Source of the DNA: Limnothrix sp. BL-A-16
GTDB lineage: Bacteria; Cyanobacteriota; Cyanobacteriia; CACIAM-69d
Assembly (NCBI GenBank): GCA_041937175.2
Contig: CP166615.1
Span: forward strand, 896,001 to 960,000
Direction: 5' to 3'
DNA length: 64,000 nucleotides
Shown piece by piece: positions 23,505-40,612 of this stretch; position 1 is the first letter of the stretch; each line of letters starts with the position of its first letter. A model generated the notes under the pieces. That model was not told the origin of the DNA. It saw only the letters and a program-made list of their open reading frames with translations, and searched no databases. A program made the translations under genes and the position numbers.

Positions 23505-25418
23505 ATGAGCGATCGCCCTTCCGTTGCCATCCTAGCGCCCACGCCTCGTGGTCTGCGGTTGGCCCAACAAATCCAAGCGGGACTGCCTGGCTCCGTGATT
23601 TGGACGAAGGATTCGGCCCAGGGCCGTGCGGCGGCGGGTTCCCGGGATGCCCTTCGCACCTATGAAGACTTTCGGGCCCTGGTGGCCGATCGCTGGATGG
23701 TGGGGCAACCGCTGATTTTTGTGTTGGCGGTGGAGGCCACGGTGCGGGCGATCGCCCCCCATTTACAAGACAAACGCACGGAACCGGCCGTGGTGGCCGT
23801 TGATGAAACGGGGCAGTATGTGATCAGCCTTTGCGGCGGGCATTTGGGCGGGGCTGATGCCTTGACCCGACAGGTGGCGGGGCTGTTGACGGTGGAGCCG
23901 GTGATCACCAGTGCCGCCGAAGGGCAGCAGCTCCCGGCGATCGATCTGTTGGGCGATCGCTACGGTTGGCGACGGGGCCAAGGGGATTGGCTGGGGGTAG
24001 CCAGCGCGATCGCCCGGTTCGAGACCGTGGGCGTGGTGCAAACTTGCGGCTGGAATCTGTGGATTGAGGAGTTGCCGGAGTTTCACCCCTTTGTGCTTTT
24101 GTCGGAAGCGGACTTGGCAGAGGTGGACGAGTTGCCTTCCAATCTGCGGGCGATCGTTTGGATTAGCGATCGCCCCTTGCCGTCCTTGCCCTTGCCCGCA
24201 GTGGCCTGGCATCCGCGCACCCTTTGGGTTGGCATTGGTTGCGAGCGCCACACCCCCGAAGGTCAGATCGCGGCGGCCTTGGCCCAAGTGTTGGAGCAAG
24301 CGGATTTGGCTCCGGAGGCACTTGCTGGGATTGGTTCGATCGACCTGAAACGGGATGAAGTGGGGTTGCTGGCCTTAGTCGATCGGCTCGATCTGGCCGC
24401 CCGTTGGTTCACTGCCGCCGCCCTGGCCCCGATCGCCGTGCCCAACCCTTCGGAGGTGGTGCGCGCAGAAGTGGGCACACCCTCAGTGGCGGAAGCATCA
24501 GCCCGGTTGGCGGCCGACGGAGCCGAGCTAATTCGGGAAAGACAGGGGTTTCGGGCCCCCAACGGTGGTTCCGGCGCTTGCACGATCGCCCTGGCTCGGG
24601 CCGATCGGGAATATACCCCCCACCTGGGCAAGCTGTGGCTGATTGGTACGGGCCCCGGCTCCTTGGATCAGCTCACCCCCGCCGCCCGCGCTGCCCTCAG
24701 CCAATGCGACATCATCATCGGCCATCAACTTTGCCTAGATCTGCTGCGCCCCCTGTTGCATCCGGGGCAAATCATTGAAGGCAGTCCCATCACCCACGAA
24801 AAGCAGCGTGCGGAACGGGCGATCGACCTGGCGGAGCGGGGGCTAAGGGTGGCGGTGGTTTCTTCCGGTGACTGTGGAATTGATGCCATGGCCGGGTTGG
24901 TGCTGGAATGTTTGGCCGCCCGCAACTGGGACGGCCAAACCCCGCAGGTGGAAGTGTTGCCCGGAATCACCGCCTTGCAAGCGGCCGCCGCCCGCGTGGG
25001 TGCGCCCCTAATGCATGATTTTTGCGCCATTTCCCTGTCGGACTTGCTCACGCCCTGGCCCGTCATTGTGCAACGGTTGCAGGCGGCGGCGGCCGGAGAC
25101 TTTGTGGTGGCGTTATATAACCCCCGATCGCAAACGCGCCAAACCCAAATTGAAACGGCCTTCGAGATTTTGCGGGCCCAGCGATCGCCCGAAACCCCTG
25201 TAGTTCTGGCTCGATCGCTCCACCGTCCCGATGAACAGATCACCATCGCCACCCTAGCCACGGTCGATTTGCAGGCGATCGATATGCTCACCGTCGTTTT
25301 AATTGGCAACGCCAGCACCTTCACCCACAGCGGCAAGGTGATCACCCCCCGAGGCTATGCCGTGGCTCATGCATTCCTGTCTGCCACAACATCTACTCCC
25401 GATTCATTAGGAGATTAA
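23505..25418 (+). CDS. cobJ: CbiG-CobJ fusion (precorrin-3B C17-methyltransferase)
   Basis: CbiG motifs VISLCGGHLGGAD, LWVGIGCER, VGTPSVAEA; methyltransferase motifs IGTGPG, SSGD, PGITA, HDFCAISLSDLLTPW, YNPRS, TPRGY. Confidence 0.93.
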   Translation: MSDRPSVAILAPTPRGLRLAQQIQAGLPGSVIWTKDSAQGRAAAGSRDALRTYEDFRALVADRWMVGQPLIFVLAVEATVRAIAPHLQDKRTEPAVVAVDETGQYVISLCGGHLGGADALTRQVAGLLTVEPVITSAAEGQQLPAIDLLGDRYGWRRGQGDWLGVASAIARFETVGVVQTCGWNLWIEELPEFHPFVLLSEADLAEVDELPSNLRAIVWISDRPLPSLPLPAVAWHPRTLWVGIGCERHTPEGQIAAALAQVLEQADLAPEALAGIGSIDLKRDEVGLLALVDRLDLAARWFTAAALAPIAVPNPSEVVRAEVGTPSVAEASARLAADGAELIRERQGFRAPNGGSGACTIALARADREYTPHLGKLWLIGTGPGSLDQLTPAARAALSQCDIIIGHQLCLDLLRPLLHPGQIIEGSPITHEKQRAERAIDLAERGLRVAVVSSGDCGIDAMAGLVLECLAARNWDGQTPQVEVLPGITALQAAAARVGAPLMHDFCAISLSDLLTPWPVIVQRLQAAAAGDFVVALYNPRSQTRQTQIETAFEILRAQRSPETPVVLARSLHRPDEQITIATLATVDLQAIDMLTVVLIGNASTFTHSGKVITPRGYAVAHAFLSATTSTPDSLGD

Positions 25419-26819
25419 TTGGAAAATCACTCAAAACAACCCAAAATGACTTGAAATTAGCACTTTTCTTCATCATTGCTCCACAATCATCCCGTTTTTC
25501 TACCAATCTTTGAAGCTTGGGTGAAGCGGCAAAATTCAAAAGGAATCCCGGGAATGATCGCGAAATGGCAATTGGCTCATTTTTGCGGAATTTTGAGCAT
25601 ATCGACCAGATTTTGTTGGTCAATCTACCCCAGTCGCGATCAAAGTGTAAAAATTGATGCTTTGGCAACCCTCTAAAAAAACAGGTTTCGTCATTTTTTT
25701 AGACCTTGACAGCATTGGTGAAGATTGAAATCGACAATGATTGCGATCTCATGGGGTAAATTTTTATGCACTATATCCTGATTTAGCGCAGCAAGTTGTG
25801 TAGTATCTTGACTTGCTGACAGGCTTAAATGCGAAAGAAATCAGGAGAATCAATATTTATTGAGATTTTTTTAAACCATTCAGTCATATTTGGGCCATTA
25901 ATTTCTTGACAATCATTCTCTGAGTTTGTCAAGCAATTACTTGATTGTGAGTGATTTTCGTAAATGTGAAAAAAATCTCAAAGCCCTGAAGAGCAGGCTT
26001 TGTAAGCATCTAAGAAAACCGTAAATTAAAATTACTACTCATTCATAATGTTAGTTTGCAAGGTCTAGACTGTTCTAAGAAACGGCTTTGACCAATAAAA
26101 GGCCTTGGGGAGCAGCCCTCAAGCCAACACGATCATCAAGAAAAGTTAATGACTGCTCGAAATCAACTAAATTATTATTTAATAATTGAATATGTCCTGA
26201 TGATCTCTGGGTTAACTCTCGCCATTTCTTCAGTAGATTTCCCGATTGCCACTAGATGACTGTTTGTAGACCATGACAACGTTTGAGTGCGCTCAGCCGG
26301 TTCTTAAATCAGTTCAGTAGGAGGTAAGCTTGGAGTATCAATTAAGACATAACATTGGCACTGGCTTTGGGTTCATCGCTATTTATTAGCGAAATCAAGC
26401 AATCCTGCGAGCAAAATTGACCACCACTCAGTGCTCTACAGCCCAGGCGGGATCGATATTTGCAGCGGAAAAATTTTTCTGAAAATTGACTCAAGACTTA
26501 GATCAAAACTACTGTGCCGATTTTGCAAAGTTGTCGCTTAGCGGCAGGTCTTTGGATAAAGCTGGTGCATTGGTTGCTGTTGGGTCGAAGGTTAGTTTCA
26601 TAACTGTCATTCAGGCTCACAAGGGGTCATTAAAGACGATCGGGTTGCAGTTGGGGGTGGGAGTCCAGGGCCAAAGACTTGGCCAGCGATCGATGAATGG
26701 TTTGAGGGATTGATGATTGGTGAATGATGCTCGAGTGATCATTTGGGGACGACGGGAGCGTCGTGATCAATTAGCCATGGGTCAAATGGGTCAATGGGTT
26801 GGATTGGGAGTGTCCATCA

Positions 26820-28310
26820 ATGACTGAAGCAGCAACGGGATGGACAAAGGTGTCGCGGACGCTGGCGACGGTGGTGCAGCGACGGGCTTCGGGCGTGTTG
26901 GTGCTGGAGCGGGGGCCGAGTCGCTGGCGCTTGATTTTTTTGCAGGGTCGCTTGCTATGGGCGATCGATGAGCAGTTTCGGATTCGCCGTTGGCAGCGGG
27001 CCCTGAAGCGATCGGGGATGAATCTAAAGCCGGTTGCGCTGACGGAAACGGCGCGGCCCCTGTGGGAGGTGTGGTGGTTGGCAACGGCGCTGTTGGCGGG
27101 CCAAGTCACCCCAGCGCAGTTGCGATCGGGGTTGGAGTCGGTGGCCCAGGAGGTGCTGTTTGCGGCGGCGAGTGATCCCACGGTGGTGTCTCACTGGGAT
27201 AAATATGTGCCCGCTTTGCCGGACACAAGGGCGGTGGCGCAACAGTTGCTTGGCAGTGAGGCCCTGTTGGCGGTGATGCAGTCGGTGGTGAAGTTGCTGC
27301 AACGGTGGGAGTCGGTGGGATTGTCGCCGGAGCAGGCCGATCACGCGCCCCAGTTGTCCCAGTTGGATTGGTCTCCGTCAGCAACAACTCAAAATGACCG
27401 ATCGACGTTTTTAACGTTGGCTCCGTTGCTGAATGGTCAACGATCGACCTGGGATGTCTCGCTGGTGATGAAACAGCCCATGTCGATCGTCGTGCATCTG
27501 CTGCATCACTTGGTGGAGCGTGGGGGCTTGGATTTTCTGCCCTTGGACGATCGCCCGGCGGACACGGTGCTGAATTTGCTCTTTACGCCGCAAGCAGCGC
27601 CAGTTAAGCCCCCACAGTCCGCAGCGCCCCAGGACAGAGCCGCCACCGCTCCAGGGCGATCGGGCGGGCCGGCGGCGAACCCGACCCCAGCACCCCAACC
27701 CACTTCAGCAACCCAAGCTCCCAATTCTGAGCAACCCTTGGTGATGTTGATTGATGACGATCCGATGGTGGGCAAGCTGCTGCGCCCCGTGGTGCATCGT
27801 TTGGGTTGTCGGTTTGTGCATATTACGGAGCCGACAAGGGCTTTGGCGGCGGCGATCGAGCAGCGGCCAGATATGGTGTTGCTGGATTTGGTGATGCCGA
27901 TCGTGAATGGCTATGAGCTTTGTACCCAGTTACGACGGGTGAACCTGTTAGCGAATGTGCCGATCGCGATTGTCACCAGCAATCGCGGGGCGATCGACCG
28001 GGTGCGGGCCAAGCTGGTTGGGGCTTCGGCCTTTGTACCCAAGCCCTTACGCCTAGAAAAGGTGGCCGCGCTGCTTCAGCAATACTTGCCCGATCGATTG
28101 CAACCGCCACCCCAGGACAATCCCCAACGACCACAACCCTCGCCAACAACCGCAGCCACCCTCCCCAAGTCACCGCGCAATGGTGGTGGCTGGCATCCGG
28201 CCCCTGCCGCTGGCATTCAACCCAACAACGCCGGCCCCCTAAATCGGTATCTAATCGGTGAAGAAATGCTCAACAATCGCTATGAATTCGGAGTTTTGGC
28301 GAAACAATAG
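26820..28310 (+). CDS. PatA-family response regulator (PATAN + REC), PixG/PtxA-like
   Basis: N-terminal PATAN-like region (GVLVL...WRLIFLQGRLLWA); REC LIDDD...LLDLVMP...DRVRAKLVGASAFVPKP; heads the chemosensory cluster. Confidence 0.88.
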   Translation: MTEAATGWTKVSRTLATVVQRRASGVLVLERGPSRWRLIFLQGRLLWAIDEQFRIRRWQRALKRSGMNLKPVALTETARPLWEVWWLATALLAGQVTPAQLRSGLESVAQEVLFAAASDPTVVSHWDKYVPALPDTRAVAQQLLGSEALLAVMQSVVKLLQRWESVGLSPEQADHAPQLSQLDWSPSATTQNDRSTFLTLAPLLNGQRSTWDVSLVMKQPMSIVVHLLHHLVERGGLDFLPLDDRPADTVLNLLFTPQAAPVKPPQSAAPQDRAATAPGRSGGPAANPTPAPQPTSATQAPNSEQPLVMLIDDDPMVGKLLRPVVHRLGCRFVHITEPTRALAAAIEQRPDMVLLDLVMPIVNGYELCTQLRRVNLLANVPIAIVTSNRGAIDRVRAKLVGASAFVPKPLRLEKVAALLQQYLPDRLQPPPQDNPQRPQPSPTTAATLPKSPRNGGGWHPAPAAGIQPNNAGPLNRYLIGEEMLNNRYEFGVLAKQ

Positions 28311-28915
28311 AGAAAGGATTGTATGGGGTTGCCACCTACGCCCGATCGGGATGTGGGAATTGGATGTGGGGACTGTGTGAGGCTTCGGGTTTAAGTTCAT
28401 CCGTTGAAACAGACGAATGAAACAGATGGATCAGTAAGCCATGAGAAATCAAGCCGATTGAGTCTCGTTTGCACTGAATTGGGATTGAGGTTCAACTTGA
28501 GGTTCATCAACAAAAAACCACAATTCTTGCAGGAAATTGACAATTTGCAAGCTGCGAGATCGATATCAAACAGGGGCGATCGGGGCAAGTTAAAACTACT
28601 GATCCAACCGATGTCCTAACCAATGACCCAAGCGATGATCAAGCCAATCCCAGCTACCAATCCCAGCTAATTGAATTGATCAACCAGTGATTAGGCATCA
28701 GTCCGGCAATGATCAGGGTGTGCTATTGGGGTTGCCATTGGGCCCGTGAGGCCTGGAATTGAGAGAAATAATTGGGTTCGGGACACTGAACCATTGACTG
28801 TCCATGGGCCCGGCCGGGGCCTGCACCATGGCCAGGTTCCGGCTGAAGCGTCAGCCGAGGCGGGCCAGGACGGCCAATTAAAAATTGGGTTTTTGGATGT
28901 GGGAGAACGTGGGCG

Positions 28916-31900
28916 ATGGACGCACAGCAGCAAACCGCATTGATTCAGCAGGCTTTGGATGCCAACCCCCAGGCGATCGCCCTGCTCATTCGCGATCGAC
29001 TGGAACCAACCATTACCGTGAAGGCGGCCCTGAAGGAGGGATGTTTATATCTGCTGCTAGCCGGTGAGCAAGCCCCTTCGGCCCGCTTGGCCTTGGAAAC
29101 CGTTGAACCGGCGATTGAGGATTTGGCCGTGGCCGGGTTGAATCGGGCCGTGATCCAATCGGTGAAGGTGGGTGGCCAAGCGCTGGATGAGCGATCGCCC
29201 AAATGGTGCTATCACATCGACTTGCCGCCCTTGCCCTATGGCCAAAATGACGATCAGGCAACAGACCCGATCGTCAACTTCTTGGAGTCCCAGGCGCAAA
29301 GCATGGCCAATGGCGTGGCGGCCTTGATCAGCGATCCGCCCTTGGCTGTCCTGTCGGACGTTGCTGGGCCGGAGTCCCAGAATGGTCATGGGGTTGCGGT
29401 GGCTTCACCTGAACCCGCGATCGATCCTGAACCCGCGATCGAGGTGGGAGAGGATTTGGACTTGGTGACTGATTCTGATGCAGCGTTGTCTGATTCAGCG
29501 CTGTCTGATTCAGGGGGCGAGGTGGCGGCTGATGCGATCGAAATTCCGATCGAAATTCCAACCGATCTTTTAGCCGAAGACGCAACCAGCAGCTCAACCG
29601 AAGAGGCAACTGAGGATTTCCCCAAAGACGCAACCAGCAGCTCAACCGAAAACACAACCGGAGATGTGACCGAGGACTGCAATCAGTCAGCGGCCACGGA
29701 TCTTGACCGACCGGATCTAGACCCGATCGCCCCAGAGTCGATCGCCCCGGAAGTCATCACGCCGGAAGAAATACCAACTCCACCATTGCCCGCCCCCACG
29801 GAAGCGACCCAACTGCAAGCCACCTTGGCCGCCCTGACGGGTTTGGCCAGCACCCTGGAAAAGGCGGCAGCCTCTCTGATCACGGCTGTGGGGTCGATCG
29901 CCCCGTCGCCGTTGGCGGCTCCCGAGTTGAGTGCTGCGGAGTCGATCGCGCCGGCCGTTGAATCGGTGGAAATAGCTGAATCAACACCTGAGCCAGAACC
30001 CGTACCAGAACTCGCATCAGAAACAGAGGAACCCGATGCCCCGATCGCGGTGGATGGGCAGGACTTAGGGGCGATCGATGTCCTGGACTCGTTGCCCCCA
30101 GAGGAACCCAGCGAACTAGAGCCAGATACCCTCAGTCTGGATCCCGATGCCTTGGCCCTCACCGAAGCAGAGTTAGCCGACTGGGCCGCGATCGAGGAAG
30201 AAGGCATGGCGGAACCCAATCCCGAGGCCCTGGCTCCGGAACCGGAACCGGCGATCGACTCCTTACCCGAGCTGGAAACCTTGGTGGAACCAGCGATCGA
30301 CTCAGCAACCCTGATTGATGAGTTAACCAGCGATGCCGCGATTGATGAAATGATCGACGAAACGATCGAAGAGGTCATGGATGAGGCGGCGGAACTGGTC
30401 GATGAGCTGGCGGCTGATTCCGAGCTGGTGGATGCCTTAGAAGACACGGAAAATTTGCTGGAATCCCCTGGCACGTTGGGAGATGACGGGGCGAGCCTGG
30501 ACTCCGATCGAGAAGCAGCGATCGACCCGATCGACCTCGCAGAGCCGGCCACCGAGCCAACGGAAATTTCCCCAACGCCAGAATCAGAGCCGATCGGGAC
30601 AGTTTTGGCCGCGATCGCCCCAGACAGCGGCAAAACCATCGCTGAAAAAGTGACCGACGCAATCAGCAGTCTGGTGCAGTTGGTGGAACATCATCCCAAC
30701 GCGGACGTGAACACGGCGTTGGCGGCGATCGCTCGGCTGAGCGCTTTGGCCAGTCCGCCTTTGGTAGCTGCTCCGGAGCCAATCGCCTTAAGCCAATCGC
30801 CTGAACTCTCCTCAGAACCCTTAGAGCCAGCCGCGATCGACTCAGCGAATCTGGAATTACCCAATCCAGAATTACTTGATCCGGCACTCGTTGATCCAGA
30901 AACTCAGGAACCAACTGATCTAGAACCAATTGATCTAGAACCGATCGATTCAGAACTAACTGATCAAGAACTAACCGATCAAGACCTCAGCGATCTGCAA
31001 TTGGACTTGACTGAATCGGATGAATTGAATGATTCAACTGATTTAACTGATGCGCAGGATTCTGATCAGTTGATCGCTCTAGACCAGCTACCGGAACTGC
31101 CAGAGATTGCAGAACTCGCTCAGGAAGAAACTGACCCGATCGGGGAACTGGATGATGAATTAACCAGTGATGAACTTGGCGATGAATTCGATGAATTCAG
31201 TGATCAGTTGGCTAGTGAACTGGGTGATGAATTAACCAGTGATGAACTGGATAATGAATTAACAGGTGATGAACTGGATGATGAATTGAGCCTGGTTGAT
31301 GAAGATCTAGCCGGTGAAGATCTAACCGAACCACTAGCCAGTGCAGACCCAGAAATCGCGCAGCCTGGCACAGCCGAAACGGAACTGATTGTAGAACCCA
31401 CAACCATCAGCCCTCGGGAAGCCCTCAGCACCATTGCGCAACTGACCCAACTGGCAGAACATCGCAGCGATCTGGATCTGAACGCCGCGATCGCCACGAT
31501 CGCCCGTTTGGCTGGCTTTGCTCCCGAGCCGATCGCCCCGCCGCCAGAACCACCTCCCGCAACGGCGGCCCCCACTGAAGCGACAGACTCAGAATCGGCA
31601 GTCGTTTCTGAATCGGCCGCAATTGTTGACGAATTGGAAGAGAGTGCTGAATTAGCTGAATCAGAAGATCCTGAATCAGAAGCACTGGATTTGGAACCAG
31701 AAGGGGCGATCGATTCCTCGGAGGATCTATCAGACCTATCCGATGATTTATCCGATTTGTCAGACTTGGCTGATCTATCGGATTTGGCCGATTTAGATTC
31801 AACGACTGTTGAGATAACTGACCCGATCGAGCCAGCTCCTCCCGAGGTGATGGCCGAGGATTTAGCCGATGAATTAGCTGAAGATGATCTAGCTGAATTA

Positions 31901-33478
31901 GCTGATTTGGCTGAAGAAGTTGAGCCAGATGATTTATCAGACTTGACCGATTTATCAGACCCGATCGAGCCAAACAATGTCGATGAAAACATTGATGAAA
32001 ACGTTGGTGAATTAGCTGATTTGGCTGAAGGAGTTGAGTCAGGTGATCTAGATGATCTAACAGATGATCCAGCCAATTTCACCGAATCCCTAGAGCCGGT
32101 TAATGCAGAGCCGATCAAACCATTGCCCGACCCGATCGAACCGCTGCAATCCCCGGAATCTCCCGTTATCCCGGATGAACGCAGCGGTTTGGTCAATTTG
32201 GTGGCGCAGTTATTAGCCGAATCCAGCGATCCCCGATCGGCGCTGCTGGCCCTGGCGGAATCCTTGGGCGATGGCGCGTCGGCTGCCCCTCGCGAGCCGG
32301 AGCCTGTCTCGATCGCCCCCGCTGAATCTGCTGAATTAGCCCAAGCGGCCGAGTTAGCGGCATCCACCGAGCCGATCGAAACGGCTGCAATCACCGAATC
32401 AGTTGAGGCCAGCGAATCGCCTGAATTCACGGAATCTACTGAAGCGGCTGACACTGAAGCGGCTGACACTGAAGCGGCTGACTTAGAAGCATTACCGGAA
32501 TTGGTCGATTTTCTGGATTTATCTGAGGAACCGGAACCCGATCCCGCAGCTAGTACCGAGCCGTTGCCGGAATTGCCGGAATTGGCGGAATTGGCGGAGT
32601 CCCTGCCGGAAGCCCCTGCTGCAATCTCCTTCGATTCGGAACCAGATCTGGGGCCAGATTCGGGGCAAGACGATGAACCCTTAAGCTTTTTTGGAGACGA
32701 CGACGATGAGCCGTCCGGTTTCTTTGGGGATGAAGGATTTGCAGCCCTGGTGGACATTGCCAACCAAGCCCTAGCCGCCGAAACCGCTGATGCAGCCGCC
32801 GCTCCGGCGGCGGTGGTGGATCCGGAGCCTGCGCCGGTTCAGGAGCCGGAACCGCCCTTGCCGGTGGTGGAGGCGGCCGAGCCGGCCCCGATCGCCCCGC
32901 CGGAGCCGGAACCCAGCGCCCCGCCCGCGCCTATGGATCCGCTCACACAATGGCTGCAACAGGGCGATGGATCCGCCATTTTGAACCTGCCCACCAGGTC
33001 GGCCGGCAGCGCCCTCAGCACCGATGGCCAGCGTTTCCTGCGTTTTCACCTGGGCTTTGAGGATACGGCCCTGCTCCCGATCGATGAGGTGCGGGAAGTG
33101 CTGCGAATTGCGGCCACGGACATTTTGCCCGTGCCACATATGCCAGAATCGGTCTTAGGGGTGTACAACTGGCGCGGTGAAATCATTTGGACGATCGACC
33201 TTAACCAGTTGGTGGGCTTCCCGGCCATTGCACCGGATTTGACAGCCACCTCCTCCGCCATTGCCATTGTGCTGGAGTGTGATGGCCAGAATCTGGGTCT
33301 GGTCGTGCCCCAAATTGAAGATATTGAGTGGCACGATTCTCCGAATGTTCAGCCGCCCAGCGCGGGCTTGTTTCCCGATCGGCTCTTGCCCTTTGTTCAG
33401 GGCTACCTCAGCGAGGCCAGCAGTATGGTGCTGAATCCCAGCGCGATCGCCCGGGCCAGCGCCCAACAGGCTGGCTAG
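28916..33478 (+). CDS. cheW: Giant CheW-domain protein: N-terminal globular domain, very long acidic low-complexity region, C-terminal CheW
   Basis: CheW from about 33029: FLRFHL...LLPIDEVREVL...PVPHMPESVLGVYNWRGEIIWTIDL; single open frame of 1520 aa. Confidence 0.85.
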   Translation: MDAQQQTALIQQALDANPQAIALLIRDRLEPTITVKAALKEGCLYLLLAGEQAPSARLALETVEPAIEDLAVAGLNRAVIQSVKVGGQALDERSPKWCYHIDLPPLPYGQNDDQATDPIVNFLESQAQSMANGVAALISDPPLAVLSDVAGPESQNGHGVAVASPEPAIDPEPAIEVGEDLDLVTDSDAALSDSALSDSGGEVAADAIEIPIEIPTDLLAEDATSSSTEEATEDFPKDATSSSTENTTGDVTEDCNQSAATDLDRPDLDPIAPESIAPEVITPEEIPTPPLPAPTEATQLQATLAALTGLASTLEKAAASLITAVGSIAPSPLAAPELSAAESIAPAVESVEIAESTPEPEPVPELASETEEPDAPIAVDGQDLGAIDVLDSLPPEEPSELEPDTLSLDPDALALTEAELADWAAIEEEGMAEPNPEALAPEPEPAIDSLPELETLVEPAIDSATLIDELTSDAAIDEMIDETIEEVMDEAAELVDELAADSELVDALEDTENLLESPGTLGDDGASLDSDREAAIDPIDLAEPATEPTEISPTPESEPIGTVLAAIAPDSGKTIAEKVTDAISSLVQLVEHHPNADVNTALAAIARLSALASPPLVAAPEPIALSQSPELSSEPLEPAAIDSANLELPNPELLDPALVDPETQEPTDLEPIDLEPIDSELTDQELTDQDLSDLQLDLTESDELNDSTDLTDAQDSDQLIALDQLPELPEIAELAQEETDPIGELDDELTSDELGDEFDEFSDQLASELGDELTSDELDNELTGDELDDELSLVDEDLAGEDLTEPLASADPEIAQPGTAETELIVEPTTISPREALSTIAQLTQLAEHRSDLDLNAAIATIARLAGFAPEPIAPPPEPPPATAAPTEATDSESAVVSESAAIVDELEESAELAESEDPESEALDLEPEGAIDSSEDLSDLSDDLSDLSDLADLSDLADLDSTTVEITDPIEPAPPEVMAEDLADELAEDDLAELADLAEEVEPDDLSDLTDLSDPIEPNNVDENIDENVGELADLAEGVESGDLDDLTDDPANFTESLEPVNAEPIKPLPDPIEPLQSPESPVIPDERSGLVNLVAQLLAESSDPRSALLALAESLGDGASAAPREPEPVSIAPAESAELAQAAELAASTEPIETAAITESVEASESPEFTESTEAADTEAADTEAADLEALPELVDFLDLSEEPEPDPAASTEPLPELPELAELAESLPEAPAAISFDSEPDLGPDSGQDDEPLSFFGDDDDEPSGFFGDEGFAALVDIANQALAAETADAAAAPAAVVDPEPAPVQEPEPPLPVVEAAEPAPIAPPEPEPSAPPAPMDPLTQWLQQGDGSAILNLPTRSAGSALSTDGQRFLRFHLGFEDTALLPIDEVREVLRIAATDILPVPHMPESVLGVYNWRGEIIWTIDLNQLVGFPAIAPDLTATSSAIAIVLECDGQNLGLVVPQIEDIEWHDSPNVQPPSAGLFPDRLLPFVQGYLSEASSMVLNPSAIARASAQQAG

Positions 33479-33832: not shown

Positions 33833-36800
33833 ATGACTGCTTACTTTGATGCTTCGCGCACGGCTCGTGACGATCGCCAGGCCCGCAACAGCACTCCCCC
33901 CGTTGAACACAGCCCCACTCCTGATTTGCGCCGTTTCCAAGATGCAGTCGATGCCTTAAAGGCGGAGTTGGAACGATCGGGCCGGCCCGATCGGTTTGTG
34001 ATGGAAAAGATGGAGCAAATTGAGCAGTTTGCGGAGTCGATCGGTACAACCCTGGTGACCACCGATGGGGAAGCGGCTAGCGGGAACCGCCTACCGGTGG
34101 ATGGGATTGATCGCGCCATCGAAGACAGCCAAAGTTTGGATGAACTGTTGCGGCGGCTTTGCCAAGAATTGCGGTTGCAACTGTCGGCCGATCGGGTGGC
34201 CATTTACCGGTTCAATTTCGACTGGACGGGGGAATTTATCACCGAGTCCATGGCCCCCGGTTGGATGGCTCTGGTGGGGAACACCTTCCGCGACACTTAC
34301 TTTGAAAGCACCCAAGGCAACCGCTACAACACCAAGGATGTTTACCAATGCGAAGACATCTATCGCGGTGGCCTCAGCGCTTGCCATGTGCAGCTCATTG
34401 AACGGTTCCAAGGGCGAGCCTACATGATTGCGCCGGTTTTCCAGGGCGATCGGTTGTGGGGGTTGCTGGCCATTTATCAAAACAGTGGCCCGCGTCCCTG
34501 GAGTCCCCTGGAAGCGGAACTGGTGAAATATGCCAGTGAGCAGGTGAGCCGCAGCATTGCCCAGCTCAGTGCGATCGAGAAGCTGCAAAAACAAGTGGGC
34601 CGCCAACGGGCGATCGCCACGATCGTGGACAAGATTCACCAATTCCTGGATCTGGCCACGATCATGCAAACCACCACCGATGAACTGCGGATTTTGTTGG
34701 AGTGCGATCGCGCCGCCGTCTATCGATTCAGCGACGATTGGAGCGGCGATTTCGTCTCGGAATCCGTGGGTCGGGGTTGGAAACCGCTGTTGGGCAAAAC
34801 CTTCCGTGACAGCTACTTTGAGCGCACCAAAGGCGGCCGCTACATCAACGGCGAAACCCTGACCGTGGCAGACATCCAAACCCAAGACTATGATCCCTGC
34901 CACCTGAAATTGCTGGAGCAGTTCCAATGCCGGGCTTACATCATTGCCCCTGTGATTGCCAGCGATAAACTGTGGGGGCTGTTGGCGGTCTATCAAAACG
35001 ATCGGGTGCGCAGTTGGGAACCGGAAGAAACCGACCTGGTGACCCAAATGGGCCAGCAAATGGGCGTGGCGGTGCAACAGGCGGAATACCTGAAGCAGCT
35101 TCAGGATCAAAAACTGCAGCTTGAGCGCAACGTGCAGCAAGACCGCGCCCTGCTGACAGTGATGAACAAAATCCGTGAATCCCTGGACATTGACAACCTC
35201 TTTGCCACCACGACCCAGGAAATTCGCCAAATTTTCCAGGCCGATCGCGCCTGCATCTTCCGGTTCGATCCGGACTGGAGCGGTGAGTTTGTGGCCGAAG
35301 CGGTCACCCCCGGTTGGCAACGACTGCTCGATCGCGACGGAGCCGGCCTGCGGGATGGCAACAACCGACGGGGCGGGCGCTCTCTGGCCCGCGTCGAAGA
35401 CAGCTATTTGCAAGACAACCAGGGCGGTCGCTATCGCCAGGGCGAAACCCTGCTGGTGAACGATATTTACCAAGCCAACTTCAGCCGCTGCTATCTGGAC
35501 TTGCTGGAACAGTTCCAAGCCAAGGCCTACGCGATCGCCCCGATCTTCAAGGGCAATGACCTTTGGGGCCTGTTGGCGGTTTACCAAAACAGCAACTCCC
35601 GCCAGTGGGAAGAACTGGAAGGGCAAATTCTGTCTCGGTTGGGAACCCAACTGGGCTTGGCCCTGCAACAGGCGGAGTATGTGGAACAGCTCAAAACCCA
35701 AGCGGCCCAGCTCCAAAAATCCGCCGAACGGAATAAGGCCATTTCCGCGACGATCGACAAAATCCGCGCTTCCCTGGACATCCGCACCATCTTCCGCACC
35801 ACCACCACGGAATTGCGCCAAATTCTGGAGGTCGATCGGGTCGGAATTTATCAATTCCAGCCGGACTGGAGCGGGCAGTTCATGGCGGAATCTGTGGGCC
35901 CCGGTTGGTTGCGGCTGTTGGACTCTCCCGACAGTGACGGGAGTTTCCAAACGGAAATGAGCGATTGCGAAGCCATCAACGGCCTAACCCAAGCGCGCCC
36001 CACCAACGCTGGCCGGGTACGGGATACCTACCTCCAGGAAAACGAAGGGGGCCGCTATGCCCGAGGTGAAAGCTTTGTGGTTTCTGATATCTACAAAGCC
36101 GGATTCACCCCCTGTTATCTGAGTGTGCTGGAACGGTTCCAAGCCCGCGCCTATGCGATCACCCCGATCTTTCAGGGCGATCGACTGTGGGGGCTGCTGG
36201 CGATTTACCAAAACAGCGGCCCGCGTCAGTGGGAAACCTCCGAAGTGGAATTCGTGGCCCAGGTGGGGGCCCAGTTGGGCATCGCCCTGAAGCAGGCGGA
36301 AACCCTGGCGGAATTGCAGCGGAAATCGGCCCAGGTGGAAGAGGCCGCCCAACGGGACAAGGCCGCCCGCGAAGCTCTGCAACAGAAGGCCCTAAACCTG
36401 CTGATGGCGGTGCGGCCGGCCCTGGAAGGGGATCTCACCGTGCGCGCGCCGATTACCGAAGACGAAGTGGGCACGATCGCCGATGCCTACAACAACACCC
36501 TGCAAAGCCTGCGGCAGATTGTGGTGAAGCTGCAAGAAACGGCGGCTAAGGTGTCGAATACCTCCACCACCAGTTCCAGCGCCATTGGTGAGCTGTCTAA
36601 CCAAGCCCAGCAACAATATCGGGCCCTGTTGGAAGCGGTGCAGCGGGTACAAACCATGGCGGAAGTCAGCACGGATGTGACCCAAAATGCCCAGCAGGTG
36701 ACCCTGGCGGTGCAACGAGCCACCAACACGATCCAGGAAGGCGACGCGGCCATGAACCGGACGGTGGATGCCATTCTGTCGATTCGGGACACGGTGGCGG

Positions 36801-37363
36801 AAACGGGACGCAAGATTCGGGCCCTGAGCGAATCGTCCCAAAAAATCTCGAAGATCGTGAGCCTGATTGGCAACTTCACCACCCAAACCCAACTGTTGGC
36901 GCTGAATGCTGCCATTGAGGCAACGCGGGCCGGGGAATATGGTCGCGGCTTCACGGTGGTTGCCGATGAGGTGCGATCGCTTGCCCGACAGTCGGCCGAT
37001 GCAACCACGGAAATTGCGGCCCTGGTGGAAGAGATTCAGGCGGAAACCCAGGCGGTGGCCCAGGCCATGGAAGCGGGGATTCAGCAGGTGGTGGCGGGGA
37101 CGAATCTGGTGAGCGATACCCGATCGAACCTGAGCGAAATTGTGGATGTGACCGCCCAAATTGGTCAGTTGGTGGAGGGCATTAACCAAGCCGCCGCCAG
37201 CCAAACCCAACAGGCCCAAGCGGTGGCCCACACGATGACGGAGGTGGCAACAATTGCCGATCGCACCTCCTCCAGTTCCGTGGCCCTGACCGCTTCCTTT
37301 GAGGATCTGTTGGCCATGTCCCAAGAGCTGCAAGCCAGCGTGGGTCGGTTCAAGGTGAACTAA
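33833..37363 (+). CDS. Soluble methyl-accepting photoreceptor with four cyanobacteriochrome GAF domains (PixJ/PtxD-like)
   Basis: Four GAF repeats with bilin-binding Cys (CH, CH, CY, CY); MCP tip [34 protein letters not shown]; no TM helix seen. Confidence 0.93.
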
Positions 37364-37551: not shown

Positions 37552-38736
37552 ATGCTCGATCCCGCCATCCGCGAGGAAGCCTACGGATACTTCCTCAGTG
37601 AGTCCCAAGACCTGCTGCGATCGATCGAGACGGATTTGTTGCAACTGCGCGACGATCCCTCGAAACAGCGGATCCATGCCCTGATGCGTGCCACCCACAC
37701 CCTGAAGGGGGCTTCCGCCAATGTGGGGCTGGAAACCATCTCCACGATCGCCCACCACATGGAGGATGTGTTTCGGGCCCTGTTTGACCCGGATGCTGAA
37801 GTGGAGGTGGAACTAGAGGGGCTGTTGTTTCAGCTCTATGAATATTTGCGTTTGGCCCTGACCACCCAATGGGAACAGGGACGAGAAGCCGATCAAGAGG
37901 TGTTGGATCAGGCGATCGATGCTTTTGCTCGGATCCAAACCCTGTTGGGAGACTGCTTCGAGCGCGAACAAAAGCTGCCCACCTCCGCTGAACTGGGGTT
38001 TGACCTGGTGCAGTCGATCTTTGAAACGGGGGTGAAGGAACGAATCGATCAGTTGGCGGCCCTGGTGGCGGCGGCGGATGGGCCGGCGGCCTTGGAAACG
38101 GTGGCCACCCAATCGGAGGTGTTTACGGGGTTAGGGGAATCCTTGGGGCTGCCGGGGTTCCAGGCGATCGCGGAGGCGGCACTCCAGGCCGTGGCCAACC
38201 AGGGCGATCGGCCTTTGGCGGTGGCCCAGGCGGTGTTAAGCAATTGGCAAGCGGCCCAACAGGCGGTTTTGGCGGGCGATCGCACCCAAGGCGGTGAGGT
38301 TTCGGCGGAGTTGGCGGCTCTGGCGGGTCAGGAGCCGAAGCCGGGAGATCTGGACGATTTGGCCGATGGCACGCTGGATCTGAGTATGGATCTCAGTGAC
38401 GAGATGCCGGCCGGTTGGTTGGATTTGACCGATGGTACGTTGGATCTGACCACGGATCCCCCGCCTGCCCCCACACCTGCCCCCCGATCGCGGGTGGATC
38501 GCCTGCGATTTCCGCACCCACTCCAGCGCCCGTTGCCACACCGGTTCCGACCCCGCCCACCCCCCGCCCGCTCCCTTGGTGACGGCGGAAGCGGCCCCCC
38601 GTGGGACTCCAGAACCAACGCGATCGGCGGAACCGCAACGGGTGGACAGCAAACCCCTAACCCCGACTCCCCTGATTCGGGTAGAAATCGATCGGCTGCA
38701 ATCCCTGCAACACCTGGTGGGGGAGCTGCTGATTAA
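37552..38736 (+). CDS. cheA: CheA-like hybrid kinase, N-terminal Hpt part (frame-split from the downstream part)
   Basis: Hpt motif LMRATHTLKGASA plus a second helical domain; the reading becomes implausible after the C6 run at 38480-38485. Confidence 0.75.
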   Translation: MLDPAIREEAYGYFLSESQDLLRSIETDLLQLRDDPSKQRIHALMRATHTLKGASANVGLETISTIAHHMEDVFRALFDPDAEVEVELEGLLFQLYEYLRLALTTQWEQGREADQEVLDQAIDAFARIQTLLGDCFEREQKLPTSAELGFDLVQSIFETGVKERIDQLAALVAAADGPAALETVATQSEVFTGLGESLGLPGFQAIAEAALQAVANQGDRPLAVAQAVLSNWQAAQQAVLAGDRTQGGEVSAELAALAGQEPKPGDLDDLADGTLDLSMDLSDEMPAGWLDLTDGTLDLTTDPPPAPTPAPRSRVDRLRFPHPLQRPLPHRFRPRPPPARSLGDGGSGPPWDSRTNAIGGTATGGQQTPNPDSPDSGRNRSAAIPATPGGGAAD

Positions 38737-40612
38737 TGAAAATCGTCAAAGCTTGCAGGATGAACAGTTGCGATCGGCCCTGGAACGATTTCGCCAAGGC
38801 CTGCGCCAACACCGTCGCTTGCTGGCGGAAGCACGCGATCGCCTGGAAAAACGCCCCAACGATCGCCGATCGCTCAATGGTTCTCCCGCCGCCACCAGTG
38901 CCAACGATCTGATTTTGCAACAGTCGATCGATGCGGCCCTCGACAGTGCCGAGCGGCTAGATTCCACGGCGGAAGTGGTGGAACGCTACGCCCAACAAAC
39001 GGCCACCACCCTCGACAAACAGCGCCGACTGTTGGGTCAGGTGCGCGACAGCCTGATGGATACCCGAATGCAACCGGCGGCGGCCGTGTTCGATCGCTTC
39101 GGGCCCTTGGTGCGGCAACTGTGCGCCCGCTATGGCAAAACGGTGCATCTGCGAGTGGTGGGGGAACGGGTTGCCATTGACAAGGTGGCGATCGAGCAGC
39201 TTTATGATCCCCTGCTGCACTTGGTCCGCAACGCCTTTGACCATGGCATTGAAACCGTTGAAGAACGGCGCGATCAGGGCAAACCCACCGAAGGGACGAT
39301 CGAGCTGCGGGCCCAGCAACAGGGCAACCATGTGTTGATTTGGGTGGCCGACGATGGCAAAGGCATCGACCCCCAACGGTTGCGACAAAAGGCGATCGAA
39401 CGCGGTTGGCTCACGCCCGATCGGGCCCAAACCACCTCAGATCAAGCCCTCTTGGATCTGTTGTTTGAGCCGGGCTTTTCCACCGCCGACAAAATCACCG
39501 ATCTGTCTGGGCGCGGCGTGGGCTTGGACGTGGTGCGATCGCAAATGCGATCCCTCAAAGGCTCCGTCACCATCCAATCGAGTCCCGGACGCGGCACGGC
39601 CTTCATTTTGCGGGTGCCCCTGAGTTTGATGACCGCTCGCCTGTTGGTTTGTCAGGCCGATCGCGCCGCCTATGCCCTGCCCTCAGAAAGCGTCCGCCAA
39701 ATTCTGATTCCTCAACCGGAGCAAACCCAAATGCTCGGGGGACAGCGGATTTTGCGGTGGCGAGCCAGCAGCGAAGATCCCGAAATCACCATTCCCATTC
39801 GCAAGTTGGCGGAACTGATGCGCTACAGTTCCTTGGCTCCGGGCCTGTTGCGATCGGACATGGGCGCAATCACACCGTTTTTGAGCAATCGCCTTGCGCC
39901 CCTGCTGTTGATGGATGCCGGTGACACCCCCGTGGCGATCGAGGTGGATGGGGTTGTGGGTGAACAGGAACTGGTGTTGCGGCAACTGTCGGAAGCCCTG
40001 CCCGCCCCACGCTATATCTATGGCTGCACCATTTTGGGCGATGGGCGCATGGTTTTGGCGATCGACGGCAACGAACTGTTGGCCCAAGTCGAGGCCGTGC
40101 CGATCACCGCCGCCACTCCCCTACAGTTGCCCACACCTGCCGCACCCACCGCGATCGCCCCGGAATTGCCCGCTGAGTTGCCCAATGCCCCGATCGCGCC
40201 CCCCAGTCCCGCCCCCGCCCAAGGCAGCAAAACCCTGCTAGTGGTGGAAGATTCCGACACCGAGCGCCGCCTTTTGACCCTGACCCTGGAGCGCCAGGGC
40301 TATCGTGTGGTGCAAGCGGCCGACGGGCTAGAAGCCTTGACCCAGCTTCGCCAGCGCTCCGATATTGATCTCGTCATTTCCGATATTGAAATGCCGCGCA
40401 TGACGGGCTTGGAGTTCTTGAACGCCCGCCGCCAGCATCCCAACGCCGCCCAAGTGCCCGTGATTTTGCTGACTTCCTGTAGCGGCACGCAGTATAAACA
40501 GGTGGCCCTAAGCCTGGGAGCCGCAGACTATATGCTGAAGCCTCACGTTACCCCGGAACTGGTGGCCAGCATTGAACGGCTAACGGGCGATCGGGCGGCG
40601 GCAGTGGTTTAG
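38576..40612 (+). CDS. cheA: CheA-like hybrid kinase, dimerisation/HATPase/CheW/REC part (PixL/PtxE-like)
   Basis: IRVEIDRL...LVGELLI, HLVRNAFDHG, DDGKGID, GFSTA...SGRGVGLD, CheW domain, C-terminal REC ISDIEMP. Confidence 0.88.
   Translation: MVTAEAAPRGTPEPTRSAEPQRVDSKPLTPTPLIRVEIDRLQSLQHLVGELLINENRQSLQDEQLRSALERFRQGLRQHRRLLAEARDRLEKRPNDRRSLNGSPAATSANDLILQQSIDAALDSAERLDSTAEVVERYAQQTATTLDKQRRLLGQVRDSLMDTRMQPAAAVFDRFGPLVRQLCARYGKTVHLRVVGERVAIDKVAIEQLYDPLLHLVRNAFDHGIETVEERRDQGKPTEGTIELRAQQQGNHVLIWVADDGKGIDPQRLRQKAIERGWLTPDRAQTTSDQALLDLLFEPGFSTADKITDLSGRGVGLDVVRSQMRSLKGSVTIQSSPGRGTAFILRVPLSLMTARLLVCQADRAAYALPSESVRQILIPQPEQTQMLGGQRILRWRASSEDPEITIPIRKLAELMRYSSLAPGLLRSDMGAITPFLSNRLAPLLLMDAGDTPVAIEVDGVVGEQELVLRQLSEALPAPRYIYGCTILGDGRMVLAIDGNELLAQVEAVPITAATPLQLPTPAAPTAIAPELPAELPNAPIAPPSPAPAQGSKTLLVVEDSDTERRLLTLTLERQGYRVVQAADGLEALTQLRQRSDIDLVISDIEMPRMTGLEFLNARRQHPNAAQVPVILLTSCSGTQYKQVALSLGAADYMLKPHVTPELVASIERLTGDRAAAVV

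Follow-up and report, generated by a model that had tools for sequence, protein, structure and literature searches.

The closest functional analogue of the adaptor described here is ParP of Vibrio. Its N-terminal domain binds ParC, its C-terminal SH3-like CheW/P5-like domain integrates into the array, and a long proline-rich linker runs between the two; the protein couples array formation to array placement (PMC5706961). In Synechocystis, type IV pili and phototaxis are under the control of the Tax1 pathway, which is described with two CheW-like adaptors, Sll0040 and Sll0044 (PMC11181946). In this study, we analysed a stretch of 64,000 nucleotides from Limnothrix sp. BL-A-16 (contig CP166615.1, positions 896,001 to 960,000; hereafter the window), in which the following genes were found.

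26799..28310, + strand: response regulator, probably PatA/PixG-type, 503 aa, first gene of the operon; REC at residues 315-425
28311..28915, + strand: gap between regulator and CheW genes, 605 nt, short junk ORFs only
28916..33478, + strand: giant CheW adaptor gene (P0001), 1520 aa, identified by Pfam; orthologues of 1320-1826 aa
33833..37363, + strand: receptor (MCP), 1176 aa; four GAF domains, HAMP and MCP signalling domain (Pfam)
37552..40612, + strand: CheA as two overlapping ORFs, 37552-38736 (Hpt) and 38576-40612 (dimerisation, ATPase, CheW-like, REC; Pfam)

A Tax/Pix-type operon with a single CheW gene

The genes form a Tax/Pix-type pilus chemosensory operon. Like Tax1, compared here by its published description (PMC11181946), it combines a PatA-type regulator, a CheW, a GAF-containing MCP and a CheA with a C-terminal REC. 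However, it differs from that description in four respects: it is without a single-domain CheY (PixH) gene, it has one CheW gene (no second one was found in the operon) instead of two, its receptor has no predicted TM helix, and its CheW carries a head domain and a giant linker in addition. The order regulator, CheW, multi-GAF MCP, CheA was conserved among the operons compared.

In the regulator, Pfam detected Response_reg (E 2.5e-19), together with a PATAN/DUF4388 match that, at 22.7 bits, fell short of the 25-bit cut-off; for the L007 orthologue the DUF4388 score was 37.2 bits. The gap 28311..28915 contained no CheY (PixH) gene and no Rfam match, and a search of positions 25300-29100 returned a single one (sR28 at 26960-27044, E 0.43). 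Contigs of RNA libraries X14 and X15 spanned 28328/28348-29112/29115, and the gap may be a 5' leader. Contigs of three RNA libraries covered pieces throughout the giant CheW ORF, linker included, and hint at its transcription, though at low depth and from metatranscriptomes of related strains in which DNA was possibly included. The MCP carried a Cys-His motif in two of its GAFs (residues 184 and 356). The initial annotation had described it as lacking a TM helix, which agrees with our finding that none was predicted and that no 19-residue window exceeded a Kyte-Doolittle value of 1.48 (a crude test). In the sister genome G002 the CheA gene is intact (1020 aa); compared with it, the window's copy has lost one nucleotide in each of two C runs, at 38480 and 38559, which accounts for the split. 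This frameshift and a split of the giant gene in G001 (916 + 634 aa) may be assembly errors; they could also mean that the system is dispensable in culture.

Anatomy and conservation of the giant CheW

The ORF starts with ATG, 8 nt downstream of an SD-like GGGAGAA, and runs through 1520 codons with zero internal stops. The three-part layout initially proposed was borne out by the reading frame, the Pfam CheW match, the linker composition and the AF2 fold of the head; the parts are a ~107-aa N-terminal alpha/beta domain, a polyanionic linker of ~1,230 aa and a normal CheW domain.

28916..29236, + strand: N-terminal head domain, residues 1-107 (AF2, cluster matches, HMM)
29237..32932, + strand: polyanionic, mostly disordered linker, residues 108-1339 (composition, AF2)
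29810..29905, + strand: helical island 1, residues 299-330; nearly invariant in 4/4 Limnothrix-type proteins
30152..30196, + strand: island 2, residues 413-427; conserved in 4/4 Limnothrix-type sequences
30635..30760, + strand: island 3, helix-turn-helix hairpin, residues 574-615; paralogous copy of island 4
31406..31531, + strand: island 4, helix-turn-helix hairpin, residues 831-872; turn motif R-x-D-x-D-x-N
32189..32290, + strand: helical island 5, residues 1092-1125; conserved within the genus
32702..32773, + strand: island 6, residues 1263-1286; acidic Phe-Phe motif, then a short helix
32936..32968, + strand: junction motif W-L-x-Q-G, residues 1341-1351
33035..33445, + strand: CheW domain, residues 1374-1510 (Pfam PF01584)

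CheW was the sole Pfam match in the protein (E 3.6e-21; 75.7 bits, cut-off 23.5). The domain matched the solved CheW structure 2qdl (E 3.3e-7) and was 100% identical in amino acids to that of G002 despite a dS of 0.21. The W-L-x-Q-G motif before it was present in 11/11 proteins examined, long and short. At the other end, AF2, a check suggested at the outset, gave residues 1-110 a confident fold (mean pLDDT 91.2, pTM 0.81) with the order helix-helix-strand-strand-helix-strand-strand. The head had no match among Pfam and NCBIfam models; 177 clusters matched it at E<=1e-3, and an HMM of 24 CheW-unlinked members of the family scored it at 59.4 bits. By sequence comparison, it is a member of a cyanobacterial alpha/beta module family. 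Since the head occurs in seven other proteins of the same genome and is elsewhere fused to such different modules as Pilin_GH, TPR-GUN4, WD40, SHOCT, EcsC and PrsW, it is not specific to chemosensory arrays.

Residues 106-1370 (1265 aa) consisted mainly of A (15.0%), E (14.6%), L (12.3%), D (11.8%), P (11.2%) and S (8.8%), and held only 5 K and 10 R against 334 acidic residues (D+E 26%), giving a net charge of -319. When all 2072 stop-to-stop frames of 300 aa or more in the genome were screened, two contained an acidic tract of >1000 aa poor in K and R, the giant CheW being one of them, so its composition is far from chance. The tandem repeats of the linker had a period divisible by 3 in 14/14 rows. 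In the AF2 model of residues 540-905, 210 of the 366 residues had pLDDT <50. Nevertheless, the linker is not featureless, and its disorder is interspersed with conserved helical islands, which had been overlooked in the initial annotation. Islands 3 and 4 were modelled as helix pairs (model residues 36-53 and 59-73, pLDDT 75-86; 294-310 and 316-328, pLDDT 75-84). The hairpin type of island 4 is kept in all three genera compared (phmmer E 1.8e-8 to 3.8e-5 against G003, G004, G005 and G006), and an HMM of the motif found no protein in the genome beyond the giant CheW, the next best match having E 1.5. Island 1 had weak counterparts outside the genus in G003, G005 and G006 (E 0.009-1.9), and island 5 was strong inside the genus and weak (E 2-10) in other genera. 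A second copy of the acidic Phe-Phe motif of island 6 lies just upstream (residues 1252-1262).

The GTDB family of the window's genome (f1) is one of freshwater filamentous cyanobacteria. Five further genomes from it had intact equivalents of 1320-1826 aa (1544 aa in G002, and 1826, 1390, 1320 and 1321 aa in G003-G006), and with the window's genome they represent three genera. Three database proteins (1586, 1628 and 1612 aa) have the same uninterrupted architecture. Compared with G002, at 90% nucleotide identity, 22/22 indels in the gene were multiples of 3. For the same pair, dN/dS was 0.00 in CheW, 0.01 in the islands and 0.03 in the head, and reached 0.37 over 963 codons of the linker; the island value is partly circular because the islands were picked by conservation among close relatives. 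The linkers of the long proteins (1025-1521 aa) contained 25-34% D+E and 0.8-1.7% K+R, and net charge was -313 to -353 in 8/9 long proteins; composition is thus kept while the sequence drifts. Proline content varied three-fold between genera (4-17%), which means that chain stiffness is not conserved.

HubP of Vibrio and FimV of Pseudomonas combine a periplasmic LysM domain with a TM helix and a FimV C-terminal domain, and neither is known to carry a CheW domain. They resemble the giant CheW in having a very long stretch of acidic, low-complexity sequence in the cytoplasm and a link to polar or pilus-related organisation. However, the giant CheW has no LysM domain, TM helix or FimV C-terminal domain; membership of this group was rejected, and the kinship suggested by the initial annotation comes down to an analogy in acidity.

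An in-frame ATG at 32933 (Met1340), initially proposed as the start of a short isoform, does exist, with no purine-rich SD before it. Met1340 was found only in the window, P0002 and G002, with N in P0003, T in P0004 and no Met in the other two genera, and a conserved short isoform is therefore unlikely.

Short orthologues and the growth of the linker

The head and CheW also occur together in much shorter proteins. In G017 (285 aa) and G040 (367 aa), the head (71.5 and 72.8 bits) is followed after 8-9 residues by W-L-x-Q-G and then by CheW. These two, with P0156 and P0157 (annotated as 'chemotaxis protein CheW' in Synechococcales MAGs), share head, motif, CheW domain and operon with the giant form, whereas their junction is 8-9 residues against 1025-1521. 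In the length survey proposed along with the first description, head+CheW frames >400 aa were confined to f1 among 301 sampled cyanobacterial genomes, and 12 genomes from five families had full-length matches of 289-361 aa. No intact f1 gene of the giant type had a short linker. Judged from these sequences, the head+CheW fusion is ancestral, and because short orthologues (285-367 aa) occur in other families, the giant form represents a family-specific expansion of the linker. The operon is of the known Tax/Pix type (PMC11181946) and the fusion of head and CheW has a short form in other cyanobacteria, and the claim of an undescribed system is not upheld.

Possible roles of the giant linker

Our preferred reading, held tentatively and at somewhat less than an even chance, is that the giant CheW serves as the working adaptor in a photosensory operon of Tax/Pix type that controls pili, and that it consists of a head, a leash and a plug. 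In the signalling array the plug, the C-terminal CheW, would slot in between CheA and the TM-less multi-GAF receptor. The head, a ~107-aa cyanobacteria-specific module, would bind something and could be the older partner-binding or positioning element, as it adjoins CheW directly in other families. The leash would be the 8-9-residue junction, grown in f1 to 1,000-1,500 residues and to a disordered polyanion of about -320, on which the conserved helix-turn-helix islands may be docking sites. Such a chain would be a long, flexible tether, and at the density of an array it would also behave as a charged brush. How far the head can extend from the array would depend on it, and it would provide several sites for docking, an arrangement that resembles ParP. 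In ParP, as published (PMC5706961), the N-terminal domain likewise serves a positioning partner, and a long low-complexity linker leads to a C-terminal domain that enters the receptor-CheA core unit. The fusion of CheW to a tether, as first proposed, therefore has a documented precedent, while the tether function itself is what we infer. However, the ParP linker is described as proline-rich whereas that of the giant CheW has >1,000 residues at about -320; the giant-CheW operon contains nothing equivalent to ParC, the ParA-like ATPase with which ParP is partnered; the head belongs to a cyanobacterial family unrelated to the N-terminal domain of ParP; and ParP supplements an ordinary CheW whereas the giant protein is the sole CheW of its operon.

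Alternatively, the linker could be a pure polyelectrolyte brush or spacer with no specific anchor, a thick anionic coat on the CheA/CheW face of a cytoplasmic array that fends off nucleoid, ribosomes, thylakoids and other arrays and prevents aggregation of the soluble array. Charge (-313 to -353 in 8/9) and composition are conserved while length, proline and sequence are not, the same kind of acidic tract occurs in the Hmp-type CheA and MCP here and in the Hmp-type CheA of 4/4 other families, and the receptor has no predicted TM helix. We nevertheless regard this as unlikely: it leaves unexplained why the head and the hairpin islands are constrained at a CheW-like level (dN/dS 0.01-0.03) and why each of the three genera retains the head at the end opposite CheW. 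A largely neutral expansion, by repeat slippage in a length-tolerant junction, with only the CheW domain mattering, perhaps as a short product, would account for the abundance of short tandem repeats whose periods are whole codons (14 rows), the rapid indel turnover (22 indels at 90% nucleotide identity), a linker dN/dS (0.37) far above that of the domains and the short orthologues that get by with a 9-residue junction. However, 1,000-1,500 residues persist in three genera with no intact short-linker gene in f1, every indel is in frame, dN/dS is below 1, islands and total charge are conserved, and Met1340 is neither conserved nor preceded by an SD, which makes such an origin quite improbable.

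A condensate scaffold, in which islands are stickers and acidic stretches spacers, and the giant CheW cross-links the array into a membraneless body, would suit the multivalent conserved islands (six within the genus, one or two hairpins in every genus) between low-complexity spacers. We rate it slightly lower still: with a net charge of about -320, each chain resists self-association unless it is neutralised by divalent cations or by a polycationic partner, and no polycationic partner was seen in the operon. Lower again, and very improbable, is an element responsive to divalent cations, whose polyanion and D-x-D-x-N turns would bind Ca2+ or Mg2+, compact or extend the chain and so tune signalling. 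Ca2+ matters for cyanobacterial photomovement, 334 of 1265 residues are acidic, and the hairpin turn D-x-D-x-N-x-x-(I/L) agrees with an EF-hand loop over positions 1-8; however, the canonical Gly6 and Glu12 are missing from it, AF2 gives a 5-residue turn and not a 12-residue loop, and Pfam finds no EF-hand. A missed stop or assembly error fusing two genes, which the first description had itself named as a way to be wrong, might be suspected from the 1-nt indels in C runs of the neighbouring CheA gene in the same assembly. This artefact has next to no probability and is refuted by the comparative data: five further genomes and three database proteins, of independent origin, show the same uninterrupted architecture, indels are in frame, and head and CheW are fused in the short orthologues too.

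The acidic linkers of Hmp-type CheA had also escaped the initial annotation. We found no published description of such a linker in cyanobacterial Hmp/PilL-type CheA. It was present in all five families examined (the window's own and 4/4 others), whereas the CheW tract was confined to f1 among the 301 sampled genomes, and a similarly acidic tract was seen in both the Hmp-type CheA and the MCP of the window's genome. The Hmp/PilL-type CheA linkers (22-30% D+E and 1.3-3.4% K+R over 940-1870 residues) resemble the giant CheW linker in composition, in the class of pilus chemosensory system and in their occurrence in the window's genome; however, there the tract lies inside the kinase, joining P1 to P3 (Hpt to kinase core).

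Anatomy of the giant CheW and its operon

CheW is commonly viewed as the smallest building block of chemosensory arrays, a single domain of about 150-200 aa. The only stand-alone CheW of the operon analysed here has 1520 aa, in a genome with 8 CheW-like domains. The features of the region are:

23505-25418, cobalamin-synthesis fusion gene (CbiG plus methylase)
25419-26798, AT-rich stretch of 1.4 kb
26799-28310, PatA-type regulator, 503 aa, with REC and a weak PATAN
28311-28915, gap of 605 nt
28916-33478 (+), giant CheW, one ORF of 1520 codons with an ATG start and an SD-like GGGAGAA 8 nt upstream; head domain at 28916-29236
33833-37363, receptor (MCP), 1176 aa, with four GAF, HAMP and an MCP signalling domain
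37552-40612, CheA with a C-terminal REC

The sole Pfam domain in the giant protein was CheW (PF01584) at residues 1374-1510, scoring 75.7 bits (cut-off 23.5), and this part matched the solved CheW structures 2qdl (E 3.3e-7) and 2ho9, the latter from E. coli (E 2.3e-4). Residues 106-1370 consisted of 26.4% D+E and 11.2% P with 5 K and 10 R, at a net charge of -319. Across the whole 4.56-Mb genome, 2072 stop-to-stop frames reach 300 aa or more, and acidic, K/R-poor tracts of >1000 aa occurred in 2 of them, one being the giant CheW. This rarity, together with the ORF, Pfam, composition and AF2 data, therefore indicated that the initial annotation had described the three parts (head, acidic tract, normal CheW) accurately. 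Its comparison with the polar landmark HubP/FimV was not borne out, and membership was rejected: Pfam recognized CheW only, neither LysM nor the FimV C-terminal domain was found, the C-terminus being the CheW domain itself, and no TM helix was detected in the protein (19-residue hydropathy maximum 1.53).

The MCP and CheA genes lay directly downstream of the giant CheW, and the gene order was identical in all 6 related loci read. The PATAN match of the regulator reached 22.7 bits in the window and 37.2 bits in the orthologue at one of these loci (L007). The gene set (PATAN-REC regulator, CheW, GAF-bearing MCP and CheA with C-terminal REC) has a Tax1/Pix-type make-up, and no ORF of a size fitting a second single-domain CheY (PixH) was found in 28311-28915 or in any other space between genes of the operon. 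The proposal of an undescribed system was thus given up; the giant CheW is an unusual variant of the CheW adaptor in a known kind of system. The claim that the partner MCP has no TM helix was supported, as the receptor carried no TM-grade hydrophobic segment (hydropathy maximum 1.48). Two of its four GAFs had a Cys-His pair (residues 184 and 356), which we take to be the position where bilin-binding GAFs carry the chromophore cysteine. The D-x-C-F motif was absent from the receptor, so that its GAFs, if they are cyanobacteriochromes, would not be of the DXCF blue/green type. The same gene set is found in the Synechocystis Tax1 phototaxis system, where the PatA-type regulators have PilB1 and PilC as their targets (PMC11181946). 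Phototaxis has also been reported in Pseudanabaena (PMC8365994).

In the window CheA is read as two ORFs (394 and 678 aa) that overlap, while its counterpart in the sister genome (G002) is a single 1020-aa ORF. The split was caused by two single-base deletions relative to G002, one in the C run at 38480 and one in that at 38559, within 38440-38600; they could be a homopolymer assembly error or a recent inactivating frameshift. A designed split CheA was rejected.

The gap at 28311-28915 contained no ORF, and its conservation against G002 was similar to that of the flanking genes (90.8% over 26021-29451). Gaps of 270-630 nt were present at the equivalent position in related loci, and the depth of RNA-library contigs over 28311-28915 was above that of the coding region. 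This stretch may be a long 5' leader. The AT-rich stretch between the cobalamin-synthesis gene and the regulator (GC 0.40-0.46 versus about 0.58 around it) had no credible ORF. The only Rfam match over 25300-29100 was sR28; its position, 26960-27044, falls just within the regulator gene, and its E of 0.43 is at chance level.

Distribution, origin and selection

A survey of CheW lengths in cyanobacteria, started from the CheW part, covered 41 genomes, of which 33 lay outside the window's GTDB family (f1). The long open frames were confined to f1 (1543 aa in the own genome, then 1567, 1836, 1406, 1337 and 1325 aa), where the related genome G001 also had a 656-aa piece and G007, 72% complete, a fragment; in the 33 outside genomes every match lay in a frame of 162-391 aa. 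The distribution was drawn from genome searches, since word-indexed homologue searches yielded only 3, 2 and 3 proteins. The giant proteins read from f1 loci had 1826 (G003), 1390 (G004), 1320 (G005), 1321 (G006) and 1544 aa (G002), with an overall D+E content of 26-30%. Furthermore, database proteins with a head domain at 82-96% identity had 1586, 1628 and 1612 aa, one of them labelled Limnothrix sp. by its source.

Between the window and G002 (90% nucleotide identity) the giant gene differed by 22 indels of 3-198 nt, all 22 multiples of three, and the period of the tandem-repeat rows in the gene was divisible by three in 14 of 14.

dN/dS (Nei-Gojobori) of parts of the giant CheW gene, window against sister genome G002
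Head domain: 0.03
Linker (963 codons, 81% aa identity): 0.37
Conserved islands: 0.01 (partly circular, islands being chosen by conservation among close relatives)
CheW domain: 0.00

The giant CheW is a real gene kept by selection, and an artefact, with two genes joined by a missed stop or an assembly error, is highly improbable given the intact counterparts in other genomes. Contigs from three metatranscriptome libraries gave pieces throughout the giant ORF including the linker, at low depth and 90-100% identity, and ended where the linker turns strain-variable; this is compatible, at the level of RNA and not of protein, with the gene being transcribed over its whole length in related strains, DNA carry-over being possible. 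In the 110-contig draft G001, from the same genus, the gene (L005, contig C57, 2596-7240, minus strand) was split into 916- and 634-aa ORFs abutting inside the linker; a database protein of 1612 aa (P0004) has the same N-terminus but is intact.

Short orthologues from other cyanobacterial families (G017, 285 aa; G040, 367 aa) consisted of the head domain, 8-9 residues, a W-L-x-Q-G motif and then CheW. In the f1 proteins W-L-x-Q-G stood about 25 residues ahead of CheW, and an insertion of 1025-1521 residues preceded the motif. An HMM built from 24 head-domain proteins without a link to CheW scored 38-73 bits on all CheW-linked proteins run (8 long, 2 short). Among 301 sampled cyanobacterial genomes, full-length head-plus-CheW matches were present in 12 from 5 families (frames of 289-361 aa) and partial matches including the head in 4 more, and head-plus-CheW frames of >400 aa were found in f1 only. 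Since the frames of >400 aa occur in f1 and short forms elsewhere, the giant form is, as read from these sequences, an older head-plus-CheW adaptor whose junction has expanded specifically in f1. Full-text searches of the open literature brought up no account of a CheW that is giant or acidic, and a term search of a survey of CheW architectures (bioRxiv 10.1101/2022.05.07.491035) gave no mention of cyanobacteria.

The linker and its possible role

Alignment of four Limnothrix-type proteins (48-93% overall identity) revealed seven near-invariant stretches, with drifting sequence in between.

Near-invariant stretches of the linker region in the four-protein alignment (residues)
299-330
413-427
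574-615, hairpin
831-872, hairpin
1092-1125
1263-1286
1341-1351

The two hairpins are copies of one helix-turn-helix motif of about 40 residues with the turn R-x-D-x-D-x-N. The motif recurred in other f1 genomes (phmmer, E 1.8e-8 to 3.8e-5), with two copies each in G003 and G005 and further matches in G004 and G006, and an HMM of 13 copies found it in no other protein of the genome (next best E 1.5). AF2 of residues 540-905 modelled each hairpin as two helices (pLDDT 75-86) and placed 210 of the 366 residues below 50, a prediction in keeping with a disordered chain bearing islands that are folded or able to fold. Two acidic Phe-Phe motifs were located at residues 1252-1275. In an EF-hand two helices flank a 12-residue loop, D-x-[DN]-x-[DNS]-G-x-[ILV]-x-x-x-E; the hairpin turn agrees with it at positions 1, 3, 5 and 8. 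However, this identity was rejected, Gly6 and Glu12 being absent in 13 of the 13 listed copies, the AF2 turn having 5 residues and Pfam reporting no EF-hand.

In the long proteins the linker varied 1.5-fold in length (1025-1521 residues) and from 4 to 17% in proline. Its net charge was between -313 and -353 in 8 of the 9 long orthologues, despite linker lengths of 1025-1344 aa and a proline content of 4-14%, the exception being G003 (-424, in a sequence with 33 masked residues), and charge density was higher in the shorter linkers of the nine. With only three lineages represented, the near-constant charge counts as an observation rather than a statistical test.

The reading we favour, tentatively and at slightly under even confidence, is a tether with docking sites, because head and hairpins show the same degree of constraint as CheW, for which a mere spacer would have no need. 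The CheW domain would be inserted in the receptor-CheA lattice, which would place a chain some 1,230 residues long at each lattice position. For unfolded chains Rg scales approximately as 0.19 x N^0.6 nm; by this scaling the linker would have an Rg of around 14 nm and its ends would lie roughly 30 nm or more apart, with a contour of about 450 nm, and lattice crowding and charge repulsion would extend it further. The head would thus have a range of tens of nanometres around the array, and the chains would jointly make up an anionic brush. Among documented mechanisms, that of ParP comes closest. The N-terminal domain of ParP binds the polar determinant ParC, the C-terminal CheW/P5-like domain enters the core unit, and a long proline-rich linker between them couples array formation with localisation (PMC5706961). 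However, ParP is encoded beside the ParA-like ATPase ParC, whereas the operon here holds the regulator, CheW, MCP and CheA only. By this analogy the giant CheW is probably ParP-like in function.

A brush acting without any partner would have the same polyanionic chains, but as a spacer alone it would not require a head and hairpins as constrained as CheW, and we regard it as rather unlikely. Neutral expansion of the linker, set beside both the drift between islands and the near-constant charge, seems improbable. A little more improbable still is a scaffold for a condensate, in which the islands would act as stickers but the charge of the chain would oppose self-association, and a chain responding to cations, with its acidic composition and hairpin turns, appears the most doubtful of these.

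On a more speculative and unlikely idea, in which polyanionic chains are a general building principle of such arrays, a cytoplasmic photoreceptor array would lie within a brush tens of nanometres thick, of about -320 per chain with the charge conserved, bearing helix-hairpin docking sites and, at the tip, the head domain; the brush would either leash the array to the polar pilus machinery or bound a charge-stabilised signalling compartment. A whole cyanobacterial family retains a CheW ten times the usual size, with selection on frame, charge, short helical islands and terminal head. To our knowledge, the cellular placement of arrays without transmembrane receptors and the communication between cyanobacterial photoreceptor arrays and the pilus motor are poorly understood; the giant CheW gives genetically easy access to both questions. 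Its linker could be exchanged for the 9-residue junction that short orthologues have naturally, and the head and hairpins, defined baits in a search for partners, make the giant CheW directly testable.

The head-domain family and acidic tracts elsewhere

AF2 with a 31-row alignment predicted residues 1-110 as a confident globular fold (pLDDT 91.2, pTM 0.81) of two helices followed by strand-strand-helix-strand-strand. The N-terminal domain claimed initially thus stood, and a convincing structural relative did not emerge: Foldseek of the model against PDB gave nothing at E<=0.001 (best E 0.061), and the best VIA-align (wide) hits, the KhpB/Jag N-domain and 4hlb, had a Z of 7.2, in the range usual for unrelated small alpha/beta sandwiches. 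A two-copy homodimer prediction scored 0.02 versus a mark of 0.42, which speaks neither for nor against binding. A phmmer search of 1.84 billion representatives with the head domain retrieved 177 clusters (50% identity) at E<=1e-3, 23 of them at E<=1e-10; the relatives were all cyanobacterial proteins without a named family, and the matches were nearly always N-terminal and often in tandem. Among the 150 matches listed, 74 were scanned with Pfam; in these no model covered the head domain, CheW occurred in none, and 45 had no Pfam family whatsoever.

Pfam families in the 74 scanned head-domain proteins (number of proteins)
SHOCT: 7
TPR with GUN4: 6
Pilin_GH: 4
TPR alone: 3
EcsC: 3
WD40: 2
PrsW: 2
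Pentapeptide: 1
7TMR-DISM (weak match): 1

NCBIfam had no match for the whole giant protein or the head, the protein Atlas gave unnamed cyanobacterial clusters only for the head, and no description of the head was found in the open full-text literature. The window's genome encodes 8 head-domain proteins; among the other seven (L013-L019) one had PGA_cap, one a sub-threshold DUF1574 and five no Pfam family. Judged by these matches, the head is a promiscuous, cyanobacteria-specific N-terminal module, and the analysis delimits an unannotated cyanobacterial domain family (the 177 clusters).

Acidic tracts were also present in the Hmp-type system of this genome (L012, G000:C1:2834949-2844828). Its CheA has 1822 aa, with Hpt at 8-99, the dimerisation domain at 1174 and between them an acidic tract of up to 867 aa, and its MCP has 1337 aa with a 464-aa acidic tract. 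Orthologous CheA genes encoded 1700-2700 aa in most of 27 sampled families, and in all four outside families examined (L020-L023) the middle of CheA, between Hpt and kinase core, had 940-1870 residues with 22-30% D+E and 1.3-3.4% K+R. The acidic linker was present in Hmp-type CheA of all 5 families examined, the window's included; thus, by sequence comparison, acidic linkers are common on cyanobacterial pilus chemosensory kinases, and on CheW an f1-specific novelty. The acidic Hmp CheA linker was not found described in the open full-text literature either. In the Hmp-type kinase the chain lies between the phosphorylation site and the kinase core. That polyanionic disordered chains are a general, so far undescribed building principle of cyanobacterial pilus-controlling sensory arrays, forming a brush or compartment, with their placement on CheW independent, is a speculative and unlikely idea.

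The second giant acidic protein of the genome (G000:C1:584311-589428, minus strand; L011:4309-9417) has 1702 aa with 23% D+E and 1.6% K+R. Pfam families, the head domain and the hairpin motif were not found in it; its N-terminal part of about 250 aa is coiled-coil-like, and one hydrophobic segment lies near residue 511.
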